Shown in pieces: positions 15,412 to 22,576 of a stretch of 32,000 bases of DNA. Numbering within the stretch: position 1 is the first letter of the stretch; the number at the start of each line of letters is the position of its first letter. The DNA is taken from contig JARROA010000037.1 in assembly GCA_037384425.1 (NCBI GenBank), positions 1-32,000 of the forward strand, written 5' to 3'. The position numbers were made by a program, and so were the translations under genes. Below the pieces are notes generated by a model, which did no database searches, was not told where the DNA came from, and saw only the letters and a list, made by a program, of their open reading frames with translations. This DNA comes from Candidatus Thiodiazotropha sp. GTDB lineage: Bacteria; Pseudomonadota; Gammaproteobacteria; Chromatiales; Chromatiaceae.

Positions 15412-16017
15412 TCAGGCCGTGAGACGGGTTCTGCCGATAAACGAAACAGTGGGTGGGCGCTGTTCCTCGATCTGGATGCGAGACAGGCTGGCTGTGGCGA
15501 TCGAGAGGCGATACATGCTGCCCAAAGGGGCACCCAGGGTCGAGGTTAACGCGGAACGGATGACGCCGGCATGCGTCACGATCAGTATGTGTTTGCCCGC
15601 ATGGGTGTTTATGGCTGTTTGTAGGGCATTATCGACGCGCCGGCTGAAATCTTCAAGAGATTCAGCGCCTTGCGGTCTGTGATTGATGGGGTCGTTGTAG
15701 AACCGCTTGAGAATCTCATCGTCCTGGGCTCTCAACATCGCACCCGATTGTCCCTCCCAAACGCCAAAGCCCACCTCTTTCAAGCGTTCATCGATAGTGA
15801 TCGGCAACGAAAGCTTGGCGCTAAGTTGCTCGGCAAAAGCTCGGCAGCGACTCAGAGGCGAGCTGATGATGGTGTCCCAGGGCGTTTCTGCGGAGGTGGC
15901 GTACCACATCTCCTGCCAGCCACGTTCGCTGAGTGGGTCGTCCAGCTGTCCCCGGTATCGCCTGCCGCCAACGGGTTCGCCATGGCGCAGGAGGTCGATG
16001 ATGGTCAACTCAGACAA
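15412..16017 (-). CDS. Histidine phosphatase family protein (phosphoglycerate mutase / CobC alpha-ribazole phosphatase-like)
   Basis: 201-aa ORF with an N-terminal LLRHGEP...GQLDDPLSERG catalytic RHG motif and a later IVTHAGVIR motif. It starts 4 nt after the ampE stop. Confidence 0.85.
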   Translation of the reverse strand: MSELTIIDLLRHGEPVGGRRYRGQLDDPLSERGWQEMWYATSAETPWDTIISSPLSRCRAFAEQLSAKLSLPITIDERLKEVGFGVWEGQSGAMLRAQDDEILKRFYNDPINHRPQGAESLEDFSRRVDNALQTAINTHAGKHILIVTHAGVIRSALTSTLGAPLGSMYRLSIATASLSRIQIEEQRPPTVSFIGRTRLTA

Positions 16018-16021
16018 GGTT

Positions 16022-16909
16022 TCAGACGATGCCGGTGAGTGTCAGCAGGCCGGCGATGACGAGCCAGACCACCAGAGAGCGCCAGACCAGCGCCATCGCC
16101 GATTGAGGTAGGTGGCTGTAGTCATGCAGTTCGTCATCGTGTTCCCCGAGCAGAGTGGTCAGCCGCATGGCGCCGCTGCCGGTGCAGATCAATATGCCGC
16201 TGTTGCTATCACTGAACTCATCGTATCGCCGATCCTGATAGCTGCGCCAGCCATAGAGCGCATCCTCGAAACTGCCGGCGATGGCGTAGCATACGGCAGT
16301 GATTCGGGCGGGCAGCCAGTCCATGATCAACAGCAGTTGCTTGGCGCTGAGAAAGAAATCGATATCACGATTGGCCTGCTCCAGCCGTGGCAGCTGGGTA
16401 GCGATACGATAGAAGAGTGCGCCTACCGGACCCAGCAGTAGAAACCAGAAGAGTACGCCAAACTGACGCTGATTGGCCTGAAACAGGACACCTTCGGCAA
16501 CCGATTGGGAGAGCGCCGGCTCGCTGGTGGGCGGCTCGTCGTCGATGATCTCCTTCGCGATACGTCTCTGGCCGGCCTCGTCGTCATCCTCCACGGTGCG
16601 GATATAGTCGTTGATCAGGGTGTCGAGATCCGTGGGGCCGAGACAGAACAGAAGCACGGCGGCGGCGAAAGCGACGCTGGGAAGTCCGAACAGGCTGCCG
16701 GCGAGCATTTGCTGCAGCAGCGCGATGATCAGCACCGGGGGCAGCAGCTGAATGATCAGGCTCATCATGCCGTTTTGGGTCCATGCCGGCGCGTGCTGCT
16801 GGGCCAGCCATTGACTGTAGGCCTCCAGCCACCGCTTTTGGCGCAGGTGCTGGTAGTCGAGTAGAAACCGTTCTGCAATCAGACAGATGACAATGACGAT
16901 GAGGCTCAT
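16022..16909 (-). CDS. ampE: AmpE-like inner-membrane regulatory protein
   Basis: 295-aa membrane ORF. The N-terminus MSLIVIVICLIAERFLL... and the hydrophobic C-terminus resemble E. coli AmpE (MTLFTTLLVLIFERLFKL...). It lies directly downstream of ampD, as in enterobacteria. Confidence 0.75.
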   Translation of the reverse strand: MSLIVIVICLIAERFLLDYQHLRQKRWLEAYSQWLAQQHAPAWTQNGMMSLIIQLLPPVLIIALLQQMLAGSLFGLPSVAFAAAVLLFCLGPTDLDTLINDYIRTVEDDDEAGQRRIAKEIIDDEPPTSEPALSQSVAEGVLFQANQRQFGVLFWFLLLGPVGALFYRIATQLPRLEQANRDIDFFLSAKQLLLIMDWLPARITAVCYAIAGSFEDALYGWRSYQDRRYDEFSDSNSGILICTGSGAMRLTTLLGEHDDELHDYSHLPQSAMALVWRSLVVWLVIAGLLTLTGIV

Positions 16910-16992
16910 CGCGCAAGTTTCCGGTAATTCAGTGAAATTTTCAAGAAAGTGGCCGCGATTTCAATGCAGATGGGCGCCTGTATCCGATAAGT

Positions 16993-17550
16993 TCAGACGT
17001 ATTGCCCGGGTTCGCCCGTCTCCAGCGATGCCAGATAGCGGGACCAGTCGAAGCTGGGCCCCGGGTCGGTCTTGCGTTCGGGCGATATGTTCGCATGACC
17101 GGTGATGCGTTGCGGGTTGATCTGCGGATAGTGCCGACGGATTTCTCGGGTGGCCAGTGCGAGTGTGGCGTATTGGGCGTCGGTGAACGGCTGTTCCTCG
17201 CAACCTTCGAGTTCGATGCCGATGGAAAAGTCGTTGCAGCGTTCACGCCCGCAGAAATTGGAGGTGCCGGCATGCCAGGCACGACGGTTGAGCGGCACAT
17301 ACTGGATCAGCCGGCCGTCGCGTCGGATCAGCAGATGCGCCGAGACCCGGAGTTCGGCGATGTCACGAAAGTAGGGGTGTGCGTCAGGATCGAGCCGGTT
17401 CATGAATAGGTCGTCGATCCAGGGGCCACCGAATTCGCCGGGCGGCAGGCTGATGCTGTGGATCACCAGCAGGTCTACAGGCTCGCCTTCCGGCCGTTCG
17501 TCCCAGTTTTCGCAGGGCCGGTATTCCGCCTGGGGAAGCAGGATCTCCAT
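16993..17550 (-). CDS. ampD: 1,6-anhydro-N-acetylmuramyl-L-alanine amidase AmpD
   Basis: Only the C-terminal 185 aa of the 435-aa track ORF (from MEILLPQAEY..., ATG at 17550) look like a real protein. That part aligns by eye along its whole length with E. coli AmpD: LLVIHSISLPPGEFGGPWIDDLF, LRVSAHLLIRRDG, RAWHAGTS, RERCNDFSIGIELEG, KTDPGPSFDW. Confidence 0.93.
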   Translation of the reverse strand: MEILLPQAEYRPCENWDERPEGEPVDLLVIHSISLPPGEFGGPWIDDLFMNRLDPDAHPYFRDIAELRVSAHLLIRRDGRLIQYVPLNRRAWHAGTSNFCGRERCNDFSIGIELEGCEEQPFTDAQYATLALATREIRRHYPQINPQRITGHANISPERKTDPGPSFDWSRYLASLETGEPGQYV

Positions 17551-17558
17551 GGCGCTGC

Positions 17559-17972
17559 TCAGCTGCTTTCGTGCTTGCGCTTGAGGCCCTTGAGCACCAT
17601 GTCGGTGTAGCTGACGATCCCGACTACCTCGCCATGCTCTTCCACCGGGGCGCGGGAGAGGTCGAAGCGGCTGAAGATGCGGGCGCAATAGCGGATGTCC
17701 ATGTCCGGCGAGACGGTCAGTGCCGGTTTGGTCATGATTTCGTAGATGTTGACACGCTCGGGCGCCCGGTCGACAGCCAGCACCTGGCGTGCGATATCGG
17801 AGAGCATCACCAGACCGAACGCGTCGTCCGGATTGCGCTTCTTGACGATCAGCGACTTGGTCTCCACGTGGAGCATCTTCTCCAGGGCCATGGCGACCGT
17901 GTCCATGCCATCGACCGTGTCGAAGTCGGTCTTCATGACATCCCGCACCCGTATCAATTGGCGTTGGCTCAT
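17559..17972 (-). CDS. Stand-alone CBS-pair domain protein
   Basis: 137-aa ORF with two CBS repeats (VRDVMKTDFDTVDGMDTVAMALEKM... and IYEIMTKPALTVSPDMDIRYCARIF...EEHGEVVGIVSYTDMV). Its start overlaps the PII-like stop in ATGA. Confidence 0.85.
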   Translation of the reverse strand: MSQRQLIRVRDVMKTDFDTVDGMDTVAMALEKMLHVETKSLIVKKRNPDDAFGLVMLSDIARQVLAVDRAPERVNIYEIMTKPALTVSPDMDIRYCARIFSRFDLSRAPVEEHGEVVGIVSYTDMVLKGLKRKHESS

Positions 17973-18319
17973 AGCTCCTCCTCGATAACATGAGACAAAG
18001 TCTGAATCTGATGACTGACACCGACCGCATCCTCGATGTCGATCTGAAAGGCGATGCCGCTACCGGGTTGATCGTCGAAGTGGCCTGCCTCGGCGATCGT
18101 CTCCAGAATGGTACGGCTGAGATGCTCCTCCACCAGCAGCAGGAGCACGTCGCGCTGGGTCTCCAGCGTGAGACCGAAAAAGGTCTTCGGCTGCTGCACC
18201 CCTTCTCCTCGCGCCTGGTTGATGACGGTGGAGCCGGTGGCGCCGGCTGCGCGTGCAGCCTCCAGGACCTTGTCGGTGGTACTGTCCTCCACCAGGGCAA
18301 TGATGAGTTTAAAGTGCAT
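17969..18319 (-). CDS. PII-like (GlnB-fold) signal-transduction protein, non-canonical
   Basis: 116-aa ORF. It shows a beta-alpha-beta pattern FKLIIALVEDSTTDKVLEAARAAGATGSTV, a short T-loop-like segment ARGEGVQQPKTFFG, and a B-loop-like GSGIAFQIDIEDAVG. Length and layout match PII, but the GlnB/GlnK uridylylation context is missing. Confidence 0.7.
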   Translation of the reverse strand: MHFKLIIALVEDSTTDKVLEAARAAGATGSTVINQARGEGVQQPKTFFGLTLETQRDVLLLLVEEHLSRTILETIAEAGHFDDQPGSGIAFQIDIEDAVGVSHQIQTLSHVIEEEL

Positions 18320-18337
18320 GGGCTTATCCTCTGTGGA

Positions 18338-19111
18338 TCATGGATCGCTCCGTTTTGTGCGCCATTCGCTCAGTTGGGCGTAGGCCATGACGGACATGAT
18401 AGGAAACAGGCTGGCAAAGGCGATCAGGCCGAAGCCGTCGAGCAGGGGGTTGCGGCCGGGAATGTTGCTCGACAGTCCCAGGCCGAGGGCCGCCACCAGG
18501 GGTACCGTCACGGTGGAGGTGGTGACGCCGCCGGAGTCGTAGGCCAGGGCGATGATACTGCGTGGCGCGAACAGGGTCTGCAGAATCACCACCACGTAAC
18601 CGGCCATGATGTACCAGTGCAGAGGGGTGCCGCTGATGATGCGGTAACTGCCTAGGGCGATGCCGATGGCGACACCGATGGCGACCGCGATACGCAGCCC
18701 CCATTGGCTGATGGCGCCAGCGGAGACCTGGTTGGCCTTGATTGCTACAGCGATCAGCGAGGGTTCGGCGATGGTGGTGGAGAAACCGATGCTGGCGGCG
18801 AACAGATAGACCCAGAAATAGTGGTGCCACTGCGCCTGCAACGCATGCTCGATGTCGAGCAGTTCCGGTGAGGTCAGCTGGCTGGCCATCAGCTCACCCA
18901 GGGGGAAGAGTGCCAGGTCGAGCCCTTCCAGAAACAGTGTCAGGCCGACCAGTACCATGAGAAAGCCGATCAGCACCTCGCGCGGATTTCTCACTGGTCG
19001 CCGCAGGACCAGGAACTGAAAGCCGAACAGGATGGCGGCGATCGGCAGCACGTCGAGCAGGGTGCCCAGCATCACCTGAATGAAGTGGAGCAGTGCCGCG
19101 TTCATAGCCAC
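18338..19111 (-). CDS. DUF1538-family integral membrane protein (paralogue B)
   Basis: 257-aa ORF with about 6-7 predicted helices. It shares the motifs [42 protein letters not shown] and [13 protein letters not shown] with the upstream paralogue. Confidence 0.75.
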
Positions 19112-19833
19112 ATGCCGTAGCCCATGACGAAGATCATCGGCGTCAATGAGGCGAAGGCGATGAGACCGAAGCCATCGGTCATCGGGTTGCGCCCCTTGAT
19201 ACTCGAAGCCAGTCCAACCCCGAGAGCGGTGACCAGGGGGACGGTAATGGTCGAGGTGGTGACACCGCCGGAGTCGTAGGCGATACCGATGATCTCCGGC
19301 GGAGCCAGGGCGGTCATGACCACCACGCCGATATAGCCGCCCATGATCAGGTACTGGACCGGCCAGCCCTTGAGGATGCGCAGTACCCCCAACACGATGG
19401 CAAATCCCACCGAGAGCGCGACGGTATAGCGCAGACCGTCGGCATAACTCTCCTGGGACTCTTTTGATGCGTTGATCATGCCTCCATTTGCCGCGATCTT
19501 GGCAGCTTCATCCGCTATTTTGATCAGTGCGGGTTCTGCCACCGTGGTCCCGAAGCCAAGGGCGAAGGCAAACAGCAACAGCCAGTTCAGGCTGCCTTTG
19601 CGGGCAAAGTCCCAGGCCATGCCTTCACCCAGCGGGAACAGGGCCAAGTTGAGGCCCTGTACGAAGAGGGTCAATCCCAACACCACCAACAAGGTGCCGA
19701 TCAGTAATCCGCTCAGGTTGGGGATCGGTTGCTGCAACACAATCAGTTGAAAAAAACCGATGACGGCGGCGATTGGGGTCAGGTCACGAAGACTGTCGAC
19801 AAGGGAGGCTGTGAAGTGCCTGAGCAAGCGCAT
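19102..19833 (-). CDS. DUF1538-family integral membrane protein (paralogue A)
   Basis: 243-aa ORF with about 6-7 predicted helices and the motifs [43 protein letters not shown] and [13 protein letters not shown]. It overlaps paralogue B by 10 nt. Confidence 0.75.
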
Positions 19834-20261
19834 GCGGTTTTGGGGTCGGCTGAGCTACTGACGGAGACGACCTTACAGGAGTACGGGCGGCGCACGCAAC
19901 GGTCTGGGCAGGATGCGGGCCGCATCGCTGGAAGGGGAATCGCGAGTTAAAAAAATCGTTTTGTTCACAGGTTGGCTCGTGCCGGACCTGACAATCCCGA
20001 TTCGCGGCTGCGCTTATATCCCGCTCAAGTATCGTTAAGCTGCTGCCGATATTGATATTTGTTGAATATACAGGGCCTTGATGCTAGCTTTTAGTTACCG
20101 GTTTTGTGTTCGACTGGCGTGGACTCGCGGCATTCTGCCAGCTTTGTGAGGGTATTCTCAGTCCCCCTTTGGCAGCTGACATACCTTTAATGCAAGTGTG
20201 GAATCAAGCCGCGTTATTATTGACTCTCAGCCACCGGCGGTTTTTTCAGAAGTGTCCATAG

Positions 20262-21644
20262 ATGCCTGGTCAAGACAACATCATCACTTTCGGCTCTGCA
20301 GTGCCTCGTCGAAATACCATCACGCTTGACGTCAACGGGCGCCGGATTGCGGCTGAGTGCCGTAAACTCATCGTCCAGACAATGCCCAAGCTCATGGGCG
20401 GATTATTCGAGAATCTGGACGATGCCCTCTACGAAATGGCGAACAAGTCTGACAGCAATACGCTGCAGAACATCTATTTCGACTCCATGCGCGAGCTGCG
20501 CAAACAGCGGGTTGGCATCGAGCGTGTCTTCAGTCAGGAGCTGCTGCGTGTCTATGACCGCTATTGGGAGACCGGCGAAGTCGAAGTCCGGCAGCAGAGC
20601 CTGGAGGACCTGAGCAAGAGCTCCGAACTGGCGTTGCTGGATGATGAGGAGTTGGAAGACTCCCTGGCCATCACCAACATGATCACCAAGGCGGAGAACC
20701 ACTTCAACCGGGAGCTGTTTGCCCTGGGGCAACGCTTCGCCTTCGTTATCGGTGGCGGTCGGATCGATGAGCATCTGGCGCAACAGACACCGATCTCACC
20801 CGCCATTCTCTGTGCCGCCTTTCAGGTCGCCATGAGCAACGTACCGGTAGAGCTGCCGGTCAAGCTGGTGGTCTACAAGCTCTTCGACCGCCATGTCATG
20901 CACTTCATCGGAGGTCTCTACGACGAGATCAATATCCTGCTGGGCAAGATCGGCGTGATTCCCAAACTGACCCCCAAAGTGCGGCGCAATCCAGTTTCAC
21001 CGGCCTTGCGTCGGGGCGATGGCAGTGAGAGCCAACTGGCCGGCGAATCCTCCTATCTGCCCGATCCCAGCCAATCGGCCTACACTGCCACGGTTGCGGG
21101 TGAACCCGCTACCGGCGTCAGCGTCCAGGGCGAGGTCTTCGCCGCTTTGCAGCAATTGCTGGGCGTGCGCCGCGCCAGGCTTTCTGACGGCAGCCTCAGC
21201 TCCAGTATGATGTTGACCACCCCGGTCTCCGGCGTTCCGGTGATCGATACCGGCGAACTGTTGGGCGCGCTCAATGCCATCCAGCAGTCGAATGTGGTGA
21301 TGTTGCCGCAAGGGCGTCGCGTCACCCAGGCCCTGAGTCCGGATCAGATGCGCGAGCGCCTGGTCACTGATCTGCGCATGGCCCAGGAGGGCGGGCAGGT
21401 CACGCGCTCGCTCGGTGACGCGGACAACGACACCATCGACGTGATCTCGATGTTGTTCGAGTTCATCCTCGACGACTACAGCCTGCCGGACGCGATGAAG
21501 GCGTTGATCAGCCGCTTGCAGATTCCCATGCTGAAGGTGGCGATCATCGACAAGAGCTTCTTCAGCAAGAAGGTGCACCCGGCACGCCGGTTGCTCAACA
21601 CCCTGGCCCAGGCGGCTGTTGGCTGGAACGACACCCGGTGGTGA
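20262..21644 (+). CDS. DUF1631-like protein, N-terminal part (reading frame broken at about 21640)
   Basis: 460-aa ORF. The motifs LDDALYEMANKSDSNTLQNIYFDSMRELRKQR and HPARRLLNTLAQAAVGW are those I associate with DUF1631 proteins, which I recall as about 750 aa. It ends ...GWNDTRW-stop, while the next frame continues. Confidence 0.6.
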   Translation: MPGQDNIITFGSAVPRRNTITLDVNGRRIAAECRKLIVQTMPKLMGGLFENLDDALYEMANKSDSNTLQNIYFDSMRELRKQRVGIERVFSQELLRVYDRYWETGEVEVRQQSLEDLSKSSELALLDDEELEDSLAITNMITKAENHFNRELFALGQRFAFVIGGGRIDEHLAQQTPISPAILCAAFQVAMSNVPVELPVKLVVYKLFDRHVMHFIGGLYDEINILLGKIGVIPKLTPKVRRNPVSPALRRGDGSESQLAGESSYLPDPSQSAYTATVAGEPATGVSVQGEVFAALQQLLGVRRARLSDGSLSSSMMLTTPVSGVPVIDTGELLGALNAIQQSNVVMLPQGRRVTQALSPDQMRERLVTDLRMAQEGGQVTRSLGDADNDTIDVISMLFEFILDDYSLPDAMKALISRLQIPMLKVAIIDKSFFSKKVHPARRLLNTLAQAAVGWNDTRW

Positions 21645-22576
21645 AACGGGTGCTCAACGAATTTGTCGATGATCCGGGCATCTTCTCCGAACTGGACGAC
21701 GAATTCAGCAGCTGGTGGCAACAGGAGCAGCGCGGAGCCCAAATAGCCGAGCAGCGCACCAATCAGGTCACGCGGGGCAAGGAGCAGCTGCGTTCCGCCA
21801 AACAAGCGGTGGCTGAGGAGCTCAATCAGAGATTGCGCAGGGCGCAGGTCGTGCCCGAGGCGGTGATGGCACTGCTGGAAGACGGCTGGAAGGACGTCCT
21901 GCTGCTCAACTACCTGCGTCAGGGGGTAGACAGCAAGGAGTGGCAAGAGTCGCTGGAGATGGTCGACCGCCTGCTCTGGAGCGTGCAGCCGAAATCGGAC
22001 TACAACGAGCGTCAGCAGCTGTTGCGTGGCATCCCCGAACTGCTGCGAAACCTGCGTGAACGGCTCAACAGCATCTCGTTCGATCAGCACAAGATGGCCA
22101 GGCTCTTTAAAGAGCTGCAGAACTGTCACATCGGTTGTCTGCGTGGTGGCGACCCCAATCTGATACAGGGCTCCGGAACCCATCCCGCTTCCCTCAAGGA
22201 GATCCATTTTCCTGACAGCCAGATGGTCAGTGGAGACAGCCAGCTGTCGCAAGAGGTGGAGGATGCCGCCCTCAGCCATGACGAGGCCGCCCGCCAGGCG
22301 CGCGAGCTGGAAGTCGGAACCTGGGTCGAGATGCAGGACGGGCCGGTGAAGAACCGGGTCAAACTCTCCTGGAAGAGCAAGGTGACCGACACCTACATCT
22401 TCGTCAACCGCAAGGGTATGAAGGCGATGGAACTGACGACTGCCGGTCTCTCCAGGCGCTTTCGCGAAGGCACCGCCAAGCTGGTCGAGCTTTCGGAAAC
22501 CCCAATCATCGATCGGGCTCTCGAAGCCATGCTGACCGCACTCAAGAACACCTCTTCAGCCAGTGCGTCAGCCTAG
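21638..22576 (+). CDS. DUF1631-like protein, C-terminal part (continues the previous ORF in another frame)
   Basis: 312-aa ORF beginning VVKRVLNEFVDDPGIF... in a different frame, overlapping the upstream ORF by 7 nt. There is no independent SD sequence. Taken together the two ORFs look like one roughly 770-aa gene. Confidence 0.55.
   Translation: MVKRVLNEFVDDPGIFSELDDEFSSWWQQEQRGAQIAEQRTNQVTRGKEQLRSAKQAVAEELNQRLRRAQVVPEAVMALLEDGWKDVLLLNYLRQGVDSKEWQESLEMVDRLLWSVQPKSDYNERQQLLRGIPELLRNLRERLNSISFDQHKMARLFKELQNCHIGCLRGGDPNLIQGSGTHPASLKEIHFPDSQMVSGDSQLSQEVEDAALSHDEAARQARELEVGTWVEMQDGPVKNRVKLSWKSKVTDTYIFVNRKGMKAMELTTAGLSRRFREGTAKLVELSETPIIDRALEAMLTALKNTSSASASA

Follow-up and report, generated by a model that had tools for sequence, protein, structure and literature searches.

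A DUF1538 membrane pair with PII-like and CBS partners: a candidate regulated UmpAB-type cation/proton antiporter in Candidatus Thiodiazotropha

Why should two membrane proteins of the DUF1538 family be encoded together with two small soluble proteins, one resembling the signalling protein PII and the other consisting of a CBS pair? The question is raised by a locus of Candidatus Thiodiazotropha sp. (contig JARROA010000037.1, GenBank assembly GCA_037384425.1), of which positions 1 to 32,000, here called the window, were analysed. Four co-directional, translationally coupled open reading frames (ORFs) follow one another on its minus strand, in the order DUF1538-A, DUF1538-B, PII-like and CBS-pair (Table 1). 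An initial annotation had described them as a transporter of unknown substrate under the control of two sensor proteins; all four genes are present where it placed them and belong to the Pfam families that it named. With moderate confidence, the unit is read here as a regulated antiporter of the UmpAB type, for which the PII-like and CBS proteins would be dedicated partners.

Both membrane proteins, referred to as A and B, match the DUF1538 profile (PF07556; gathering score 22.6) over positions 1–210 of 211, A with 227 bits (1.7e-67) and B with 237 bits (1.5e-70), as the annotation had predicted. They are 53% identical to each other, and the motifs quoted in support of their paralogy are common to both. 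Among NCBIfam models, A is matched best by UmpA (NF041627, 374 bits, against 191 for UmpB) and B by UmpB (NF041628, 364 bits, against 212 for UmpA). These two models derive from work on UmpAB of Halomonas zhaodongensis, a DUF1538 pair whose subunits act as a heterodimer and exchange Na+(Li+,K+) for H+ in a pH-dependent manner (Meng et al., Sci Rep 2017, PMC5484666). The overlapping umpA and umpB genes were found by screening Halomonas zhaodongensis DNA in the antiporter-deficient Escherichia coli strain KNabc, and tolerance of NaCl, LiCl and alkaline pH needs both; the two proteins are located in the membrane and co-immunoprecipitate, and everted vesicles containing them display pH-dependent Na+, Li+ and K+/H+ antiport (PMC5484666). 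The statement that no DUF1538 member has been characterised experimentally is therefore wrong, and the description of the substrate as unknown is outdated. A published assignment for this exact cassette, which on the annotation's own terms would refute it, does exist for the membrane pair, and none was found for the PII-like and CBS genes.

Subunit-specific features reinforce the correspondence. UmpA is distinguished by a long loop III–IV, and UmpB by a long loop II–III and a hydrophilic C-terminus (PMC5484666); the former insertion is found in A, and both of the latter traits in B. The window pair thus combines what defines an UmpAB pair, namely adjacent A- and B-type paralogues, reciprocal best matches, a stop/start overlap and the characteristic loops, and A and B are homologues of the UmpA and UmpB types, probably orthologues of UmpAB rather than its proven equivalents. 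The earlier suggestion that the two paralogues would form a heteromeric permease is supported. The published table of UmpAB homologues includes Methyloglobulus and Methylosarcina at 54–57% identity (PMC5484666), and the four-gene cassette is present in a Methyloglobulus sp. (locus L045). Extrapolated from a single heterologous study, made on a homologue with about 55% identity, A/B would exchange Na+, Li+ or K+ for H+.

The AlphaFold2 (AF2) model of A (58 sequences; predicted local distance difference test (pLDDT) 85.6, predicted template modelling score 0.75) shows nine helices, with helix breaks at the invariant motifs A-E-P (100–101), D-S-G-G-V-T-T-S-T (187–196) and G-R-N-P/D-G-F-G. Three charged residues, E100, R152 and D187, are invariant across the DUF1538 family, and the predicted location of the two acidic ones at helix breaks is reminiscent of ion-coupled transporters and would suit cation–proton sites. 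Foldseek returned no relative of the model in the PDB (best E 0.34, TM-score about 0.2), and single-sequence and profile searches returned no solved DUF1538 structure, so that no mechanism can be borrowed from a known fold.

The association of the four genes was followed in the 80 closest relatives, taken as one genome per species with an UmpA 68–87% identical to A, by scoring gene order with ORF calling and phmmer. These loci belong mostly to Gammaproteobacteria (Sedimenticolaceae, Chromatiales, Thiotrichales, Beggiatoa relatives, Methylococcales, Alteromonadales and Oceanospirillales) and also to Gallionellaceae, Hydrogenophilaceae, Nitrospirota and Rhodospirillaceae metagenome-assembled genomes (MAGs). 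The order A-B-PII-CBS holds at 74 of the 80, so that the linkage of the four genes, on which the annotation had staked its reading, is conserved in other genomes. Four of the six exceptions coincide with a contig edge, Ns or an apparent mis-assembly, and the remaining two (Thiosulfatimonas and Thiomicrorhabdus) keep A-B-PII and lack CBS. In the window, GAGGAGGAG within the last PII-like codons and the ATGA at 17969–17972, in which the CBS start overlaps the PII-like stop, form a translational coupling signal; the same 4-nucleotide (nt) overlap recurs in 66 of the 74 four-gene loci and a Shine-Dalgarno-like motif within the last PII codons in 67. The PII-like proteins end in a tail, V-E-E-x-[L/I], that is found in 73 of the 74 with a CBS partner and is missing from the two without one and from distant CBS-less clades. 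Taken initially for an element that docks the CBS protein, this tail was rejected as such: the nucleotides behind it, GTGGAGGA-N-ATGA, serve the CBS gene as ribosome-binding site and start (67/74 loci), and the tail is hence evidence of translational coupling, not of protein contact.

Three of the close loci depart from the norm in other ways. In a gammaproteobacterial MAG (L080, 4806–6668) A and B form one 620-residue ORF; in Ca. Parabeggiatoa communis (L019, 5001–5732) UmpA stands alone, with 5 kb of unrelated sequence downstream; and a complete cassette whose UmpA is 75% identical (L064, 3570–5882) lies on a contig binned as Bathyarchaeota, probably mis-binned.

The partnership of DUF1538 with the PII-like protein extends well beyond this clade. 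Distant DUF1538 genes (31–39% identical) lie on plasmids or chromids: Methylocystis, Chelativorans and a Rhodospirillales MAG have two DUF1538 genes and one P-II gene, and Paraclostridium and Peptoclostridium a single fused DUF1538 gene (about 500 residues) with a tandem P-II gene (about 222 residues). A metagenome scan seeded with a four-sequence clostridial-type DUF1538 alignment, and scored with hidden Markov models (HMMs) from our own alignments, gave 80 further loci. A PII-like gene is adjacent in 75 of them, usually overlapping the DUF1538 gene, and in four of the remaining five a contig edge comes within 220 nt; none of these 80 loci holds a CBS gene. At four, two DUF1538 domains and a PII domain are fused in proteins of 613–633 residues encoded beside an upstream tandem PII; the fused C-terminal domain belongs to the PII-like family according to hhalign (98% probability) and is missed by the Pfam P-II model. 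At two other loci of this set, one chain carries three PII-like domains. Fusions of the 'Rosetta stone' kind are evidence of physical association, and the count of three PII domains is consistent with one PII (pseudo)trimer per transporter unit. Synteny of DUF1538 and PII-like genes is near-obligate across deep clades and, by this comparison of gene neighbourhoods, the PII-like protein is the universal partner of DUF1538 and CBS a clade-specific addition. The proposal that the soluble proteins act on the transporter is strengthened by the synteny and the fusions; 'two stacked regulators' as a general design does not survive the absence of CBS from the distant clades (Clostridia-type loci and Alphaproteobacteria). 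Finally, Marinobacter nauticus and Alkalimonas amylolytica encode a fused DUF1538-PII-CBS unit beside a CPA2 Na_H_Exchanger with RCK domains (TrkA_N/TrkA_C), a neighbour that, in haloalkaliphiles, fits a role in cation and pH homeostasis.

The triple-PII chains and the DUF1538x2-PII fusions come from loci of digester or gut type (L150, 4790–5830; L154, 4910–6013; L143, 3212–5113; L144, 3254–5110; L160, 3257–5098; L169, 3–1901). Haloalkaliphiles also possess a second clade of PII-like paralogues, 40–44% identical to the window protein and divergently encoded, which lie beside the CPA2 gene and the fused unit in Marinobacter nauticus and Alkalimonas amylolytica or beside a DUF1538 pair in Natronospirillum operosum (L089, 5001–9601; L090, 2589–7354; L091, 3369–5348). 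When a PII-like protein of Saccharospirillum was the query, the search sampled this second clade and not the operonic one, and so gave context only. In Nitrosomonas mobilis (L173, 3567–4306), a 129-residue DUF1538 remnant followed by a 101-residue PII-like gene looks like a decaying copy of the unit.

The PII-like protein matches the Pfam P-II family (PF00543) with 47.2 bits (3.1e-12; gathering score 25). Its AF2 model (pLDDT 71.7) contains two β-α-β units, an extra C-terminal helix and a low-confidence T-loop, and Foldseek aligns it with GlnK1, GlnZ, SbtB, CPII and TTHA0516 (probability 1.0, E about 1e-6); kinship to solved PII proteins by sequence is remote (E 0.02–0.5 with the single sequence, 3.5e-7 at best with the family profile). 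The Pfam match and the double β-α-β ferredoxin-like fold with its T-loop place it in the PII superfamily, and the view that it is nevertheless not GlnB or GlnK holds on several counts. NCBIfam, its GlnB/GlnK models included, gave no match. The B-loop reads P-G-S-G-I-A-F, with Ile at the position of K90, instead of the canonical T-G-x-x-G-D-G-K-I-F; the base of the T-loop reads G-E-G-V-Q, without R38/Q39; and there is no equivalent of Tyr51 or of the C-terminal arginines (R101/R103), while a persisting basic residue (QRD or PEKE) may be a counterpart of K58. With these signatures altered, canonical binding of ATP and 2-oxoglutarate is unlikely. Nor is there the genomic link of GlnB/GlnK with amtB, glnA or nif, the neighbours being DUF1538 in 74/80 close loci, in 75/80 metagenome loci and in all loci inspected individually.

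The protein is equally distinct from other PII-like regulators. It has neither an SbtA-type neighbour nor the CGPxGC R-loop of SbtB, and the window protein contains no cysteine, which excludes an SbtB-like redox loop. At the reporting threshold of the Pfam scan (E≤0.01) only PF00543 was reported, and not the PstA/DUF970 family (PF06153) that defines PstA/DarA. The T-loop had been called short, which overstates the case: it spans residues 37–55 or so in the AF2 model, as in GlnB, and HMM alignments place a deletion of 3–5 residues near the T-loop/β3 region, so that it is divergent and not clearly short. Across 28 members (30–84% identity) the invariant residues, mostly glycines, are G26, A27, T31, G49, G88 and G100. 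In the T-loop, [T/S]-F-[F/L]-G-[L/M/I] is retained and Gly49 is invariant, as expected of a conserved docking element. The family comprises 1630 clusters at 50% identity (E≤1e-3, representative library), in single and tandem forms. In public databases the protein and its relatives go by 'nitrogen regulatory protein P-II', 'transcriptional regulator' or 'YaaQ'; judged by genomic context and signature residues, these names are unsupported and amount to systematic mis-annotation.

The fourth protein was described as CBS-only, and indeed two CBS stretches (PF00571, 3e-18, 66 bits) account for its entire length, over which it aligns with solved CBS-pair proteins. Among solved structures, the CBS module of Microcystis CBS-CP12 comes closest to it (5nmu; 2.7e-20, 33% identity over 123 residues). 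The match covers residues 4–126 of the 208-residue 5nmu chain and the window protein ends just past CBS motif 2, which sets it apart from CBS-CP12 proper. The CBS module of CBS-CP12, an AMP-dependent regulator, binds AMP and not ADP, ATP or cyclic AMP, and the protein is dimeric once its CP12 domain is removed (PMC6142219). By analogy, adenylate sensing by the window protein is a reasonable expectation. Similarity to CbpB/DarB (NF041630) is slight, at 16.2 bits (E 0.007) against a cut-off of 125; with this score, and with no Pfam match to the PstA family on the part of the PII-like protein, the analogies once drawn with the cyclic di-AMP receptors DarA/PstA and DarB/CbpB find no support in sequence.

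These results suggest a scheme in which an A/B heteromer in the cytoplasmic membrane would most likely exchange Na+, Li+ or K+ for H+ and serve homeostasis under salt and alkaline pH. A trimer of the PII-like protein would dock on the cytoplasmic face of the transporter through its conserved T-loop and modulate transport. The binding of GlnK to AmtB, in which a PII protein plugs an ammonium channel, is the accepted precedent of such direct gating, and SbtB is a PII-like regulator of the cyanobacterial Na+/bicarbonate symporter SbtA; the effect here would most likely be inhibition or gating of the same kind. Negative modulation is likely because both solved precedents are inhibitory plugs and because UmpAB is active in E. 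coli when the clone bears no partner genes. The 4.2-kb Halomonas clone stops at umpB, and neither P-II nor CBS is brought up in the paper (PMC5484666); activity from such a clone means that the soluble proteins are not required for transport, which fits modulators and not core subunits. The CBS protein, in this clade of mainly Gammaproteobacteria, would be made in a fixed ratio with the PII-like protein through translational coupling and would add a second, adenylate-type input (AMP/ADP/ATP), such that proton-consuming cation extrusion tracks the energy state of the cell.

Several observations weigh against this scheme. The scores of A and B lie below the NCBI equivalog cut-offs (374 < 490 for UmpA; 364 < 500 for UmpB). 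The non-Halomonas gammaproteobacterial homologues that were scanned, at 367–401 bits, are all below them too, and the two models appear narrow. The assignment of a substrate depends on assays of a homologue that one laboratory made in a heterologous host. PII-like and CBS genes could not be confirmed at the Halomonas umpAB locus itself, for which the paper and its supplement give accessions only (PMC5484666); no Halomonas was named when 20 PII-like representatives were looked up by cluster. The basic residues that contact the ATP phosphates in canonical PII (R38, K90, R101/R103) are missing from the PII-like protein, so that nucleotide sensing on its part is not assured, and in CBS motif 2 the ribose-contacting Asp shows only moderate conservation across 71 aligned CBS orthologues. 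The acidic tail that had seemed to tie the PII-like to the CBS protein is explained by the embedded ribosome-binding site. Lastly, a two-subunit transporter and a three-fold PII present an apparent mismatch of symmetry, and both the trimeric state of the PII-like protein and its docking onto A/B are steps that we infer.

A different cargo would leave the architecture intact. If A/B carried bicarbonate, ammonium or another small ion or metabolite, Na+/H+ antiport would be a side activity in E. coli, with the PII-like protein as a reporter of that solute's status in the manner of SbtB and GlnK. The characterised PII–transporter pairs, GlnK-AmtB and SbtB-SbtA, do concern carbon and nitrogen acquisition, and many close-clade hosts live by chemolithoautotrophy or methanotrophy (Thiodiazotropha, Sedimenticola, Beggiatoa relatives, Methylococcales, Gallionellaceae, Nitrospirota); the only functional evidence consists of one group's complementation screen and fluorescence-quenching assays, and a fold with no solved relative implies no mechanism. 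However, the DUF1538 family is no less at home in heterotrophs (Colwellia, Thalassotalea, Marinobacter, Alkalimonas) and in Clostridia of gut or digester, and its distribution in haloalkaliphiles, next to a CPA2 antiporter, fits cation and pH homeostasis. The invariant, membrane-embedded E100 and D187 at predicted helix breaks are what cation/proton sites would lead one to expect, and antiport was measured for three cations with a pH profile (PMC5484666). Another solute is on these grounds unlikely, although it deserves more weight than the two readings that follow.

The signal might also run in reverse, from the transporter to the soluble proteins. A/B would then act as a sensor or anchor in the membrane, sequestering the PII-like and CBS proteins in response to ion flux or the state of the membrane, and the real outputs would be cytoplasmic targets of these two proteins. 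Canonical PII proteins have several targets, and sequestration of GlnK by AmtB is an established means of controlling DraG and others; CBSX and CBS-CP12, as examples of CBS-only proteins, have soluble enzymes as their targets, and a second, unlinked or divergently encoded PII-like paralogue in several genomes hints at wider roles. Such a reversal is improbable given that the PII-like domain is covalently fused to the transporter in some lineages, that single-chain triple PII lies directly beside DUF1538, and that the adjacency is near-obligate with no other conserved neighbour, all of which designate the transporter itself as main partner and target. Even less can be said for mere operonic convenience, in which the PII-like and CBS proteins would serve cell-wall recycling by ampD-ampE, or be passengers, and not act on DUF1538 at all. 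The cassette is not bounded at 17559: ampD starts 8 nt past the CBS stop and ampE comes next, as they do in the identical public locus, and a scan of 15900–20400 showed no terminator-like site. Of the 74 four-gene loci, 23 have ampD after CBS, the two genes sometimes overlapping by 4 nt. Yet ampD is missing there from about two-thirds of the clade, and from all distant clades as well, so that the tight packing in the window is lineage-specific; the DUF1538/PII adjacency persists everywhere, and fusion proteins join the two. Comparative data largely exclude hitch-hiking with ampDE, which we consider very improbable, and a regulated UmpAB-type antiporter remains the preferred reading.

Table 1. 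Coordinates of the four-gene unit, its signals and its flanks in the window.
Feature	Position	Strand	Basis
A, umpA-like, DUF1538 membrane subunit, 243 aa	19102-19833	-	Pfam, NCBIfam, AF2
B, umpB-like, DUF1538 membrane subunit, 255 aa, ATG at 19105	18338-19105	-	Pfam, NCBIfam, public gene calls
Shine-Dalgarno-like AGAGGA, 7 nt 5' of the PII-like ATG, within the 18-nt B/PII spacer	18327-18332	-	sequence
PII-like protein, 116 aa, divergent branch of PF00543	17969-18319	-	Pfam, AF2, Foldseek
GAGGAGGAG, Shine-Dalgarno of the CBS gene, inside the last PII-like codons (E-E-E)	17975-17983	-	sequence
CBS-pair-only protein, 137 aa	17559-17972	-	Pfam, two CBS stretches
Upstream intergenic region, 428 nt, presumed promoter/5' untranslated region of the unit	19834-20261	-	no ORF with family match
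ampD (16993-17550) and ampE (16022-16909), context outside the system	16022-17550	-	Pfam Amidase_2 and AmpE, identical public locus

Of the junctions described in the initial annotation, the B/PII spacer and the PII/CBS overlap are both seen in the sequence. The 10-nt overlap proposed for A and B stands only if B starts at a GTG at 19111 (ORF 18338–19111, 257 residues); public gene calls for the identical locus, that is, contigs encoding an identical PII-like protein, and for related loci begin B at the ATG, so that the start of B and the stop of A share 4 nt (ATGA). The same contigs mark the source of the window as a sulfur-oxidising gammaproteobacterium of Sedimenticolaceae/Candidatus Thiodiazotropha type. 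Plus-strand ORFs that overlap the unit (17571–17993, 17990–18655 and others) are treated as shadow ORFs of a GC-rich coding region. No consensus sigma-70 site was found in the upstream intergenic region, scans for consensus promoters and terminators gave nothing informative within the four-gene unit, and an Rfam scan of 16800–20400 for regulatory RNA, which includes that intergenic region, had no match at E≤1.

Two observations concern the flanks. In the window the cassette is probably co-transcribed with the peptidoglycan-recycling genes ampD/ampE, because of the short gap and the want of a terminator-like site noted above. On the other side, a DUF1631-family gene 5' of the cassette (20262–22576, plus strand) is split into two ORFs of 460 and 312 residues by a deletion of about 40 nt near 21630–21645, relative to an intact 784-residue gene on a public contig with an identical PII-like protein (L001); the split reflects either a frameshift/pseudogene or an assembly error.

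What is already known of this system is the antiport activity of UmpAB and the annotation of 'P-II family' next to 'DUF1538' in genomes, and in view of the latter the partnership is not very surprising in principle. Searches of the full-text literature, subscription-journal reviews lying outside their reach, found no description of an association of PII-like or CBS proteins with DUF1538/UmpAB; the near-obligate DUF1538/PII-like partnership, with its tandem, triple and fused forms, and the coupled PII–CBS pair are apparently undescribed. Homeostasis of salt and pH relies centrally on Na+/H+ and K+/H+ antiport, yet little is known of the post-translational control of bacterial antiporters. If the partners do gate UmpAB-type transporters, control of the PII type would extend from carbon and nitrogen acquisition to cation/proton homeostasis, and a function would be found for a large orphan branch of PII proteins (single, tandem, triple and transporter-fused) now mis-annotated as nitrogen regulators. 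For annotation, A and B are better named UmpA/UmpB-like antiporter subunits than DUF1538, and the PII-like gene is not to be taken for a nitrogen regulator. The finding is broad and can be tested directly with the existing E. coli KNabc assay, and the DUF1538 family is a structural target whose membrane fold lacks a solved relative.

A wider proposal, which we advance tentatively and with less confidence than the regulated antiporter, is that DUF1538 and its dedicated PII-like protein could join AmtB-GlnK and SbtA-SbtB as a third, widespread paradigm of transport plugged by PII. It would be the first to concern a cation/proton antiporter and also the first to involve a membrane fold that lacks a solved relative. 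One PII (pseudo)trimer would then serve each pseudo-symmetric DUF1538 pair, CBS, as a co-translated adenylate sensor, would form a two-tier sensor cap in the gammaproteobacterial clade, and the PII-like protein, without the canonical ATP/2-oxoglutarate site, may sense a novel signal, for instance AMP, cyclic AMP, an ion or pH.

Comparison with known systems helps to place the cassette. UmpAB of Halomonas shares with it the adjacent, overlapping paralogous DUF1538 genes, the A and B types with their loops and C-terminus, and a homologue table that spans the clade of the window; the window pair differs in falling short of the equivalog cut-offs, with an expected identity of about 55%, and in adding PII-like and CBS genes, whereas the published work deals with the membrane genes only. 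GlnK-AmtB offers the same arrangement of a PII-fold gene adjoining, and co-transcribed with, that of a membrane transporter, and a T-loop usable as plug or dock. However, the window protein lacks K90, R38/Q39, Y51 and the TGxxGDGKIF B-loop, its partner belongs to a cation/proton antiporter family of unsolved fold and not to Amt, and a CBS protein is added. SbtB-SbtA is also close in conception, as a non-nitrogen PII-like regulator dedicated to one adjacent Na+-linked transporter, and the Foldseek match to SbtB is about as good as that to GlnK; yet SbtA and the C-terminal redox R-loop are missing from the cassette, where the PII-like protein has a C-terminal helix instead, and its family includes tandem, triple and transporter-fused PII.

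For the CBS protein, CBS-CP12 and CBSX come closest among known systems, as single CBS pairs of about 130 residues whose known members are adenylate-dependent regulators of a partner protein. The window protein differs from them in having no CP12 domain, in its place in a transporter operon and in its translational coupling to a PII-like gene, and its adenylate ligand is putative. CBS modules are likewise tied to ion or osmolyte transport in MgtE, ClC, OpuA/OpuC and CNNM/CorC, where they couple adenine-nucleotide or second-messenger status to transport. There they act in cis, whereas here the CBS module is a separate polypeptide, present in part of the family only and paired with a PII-like protein.

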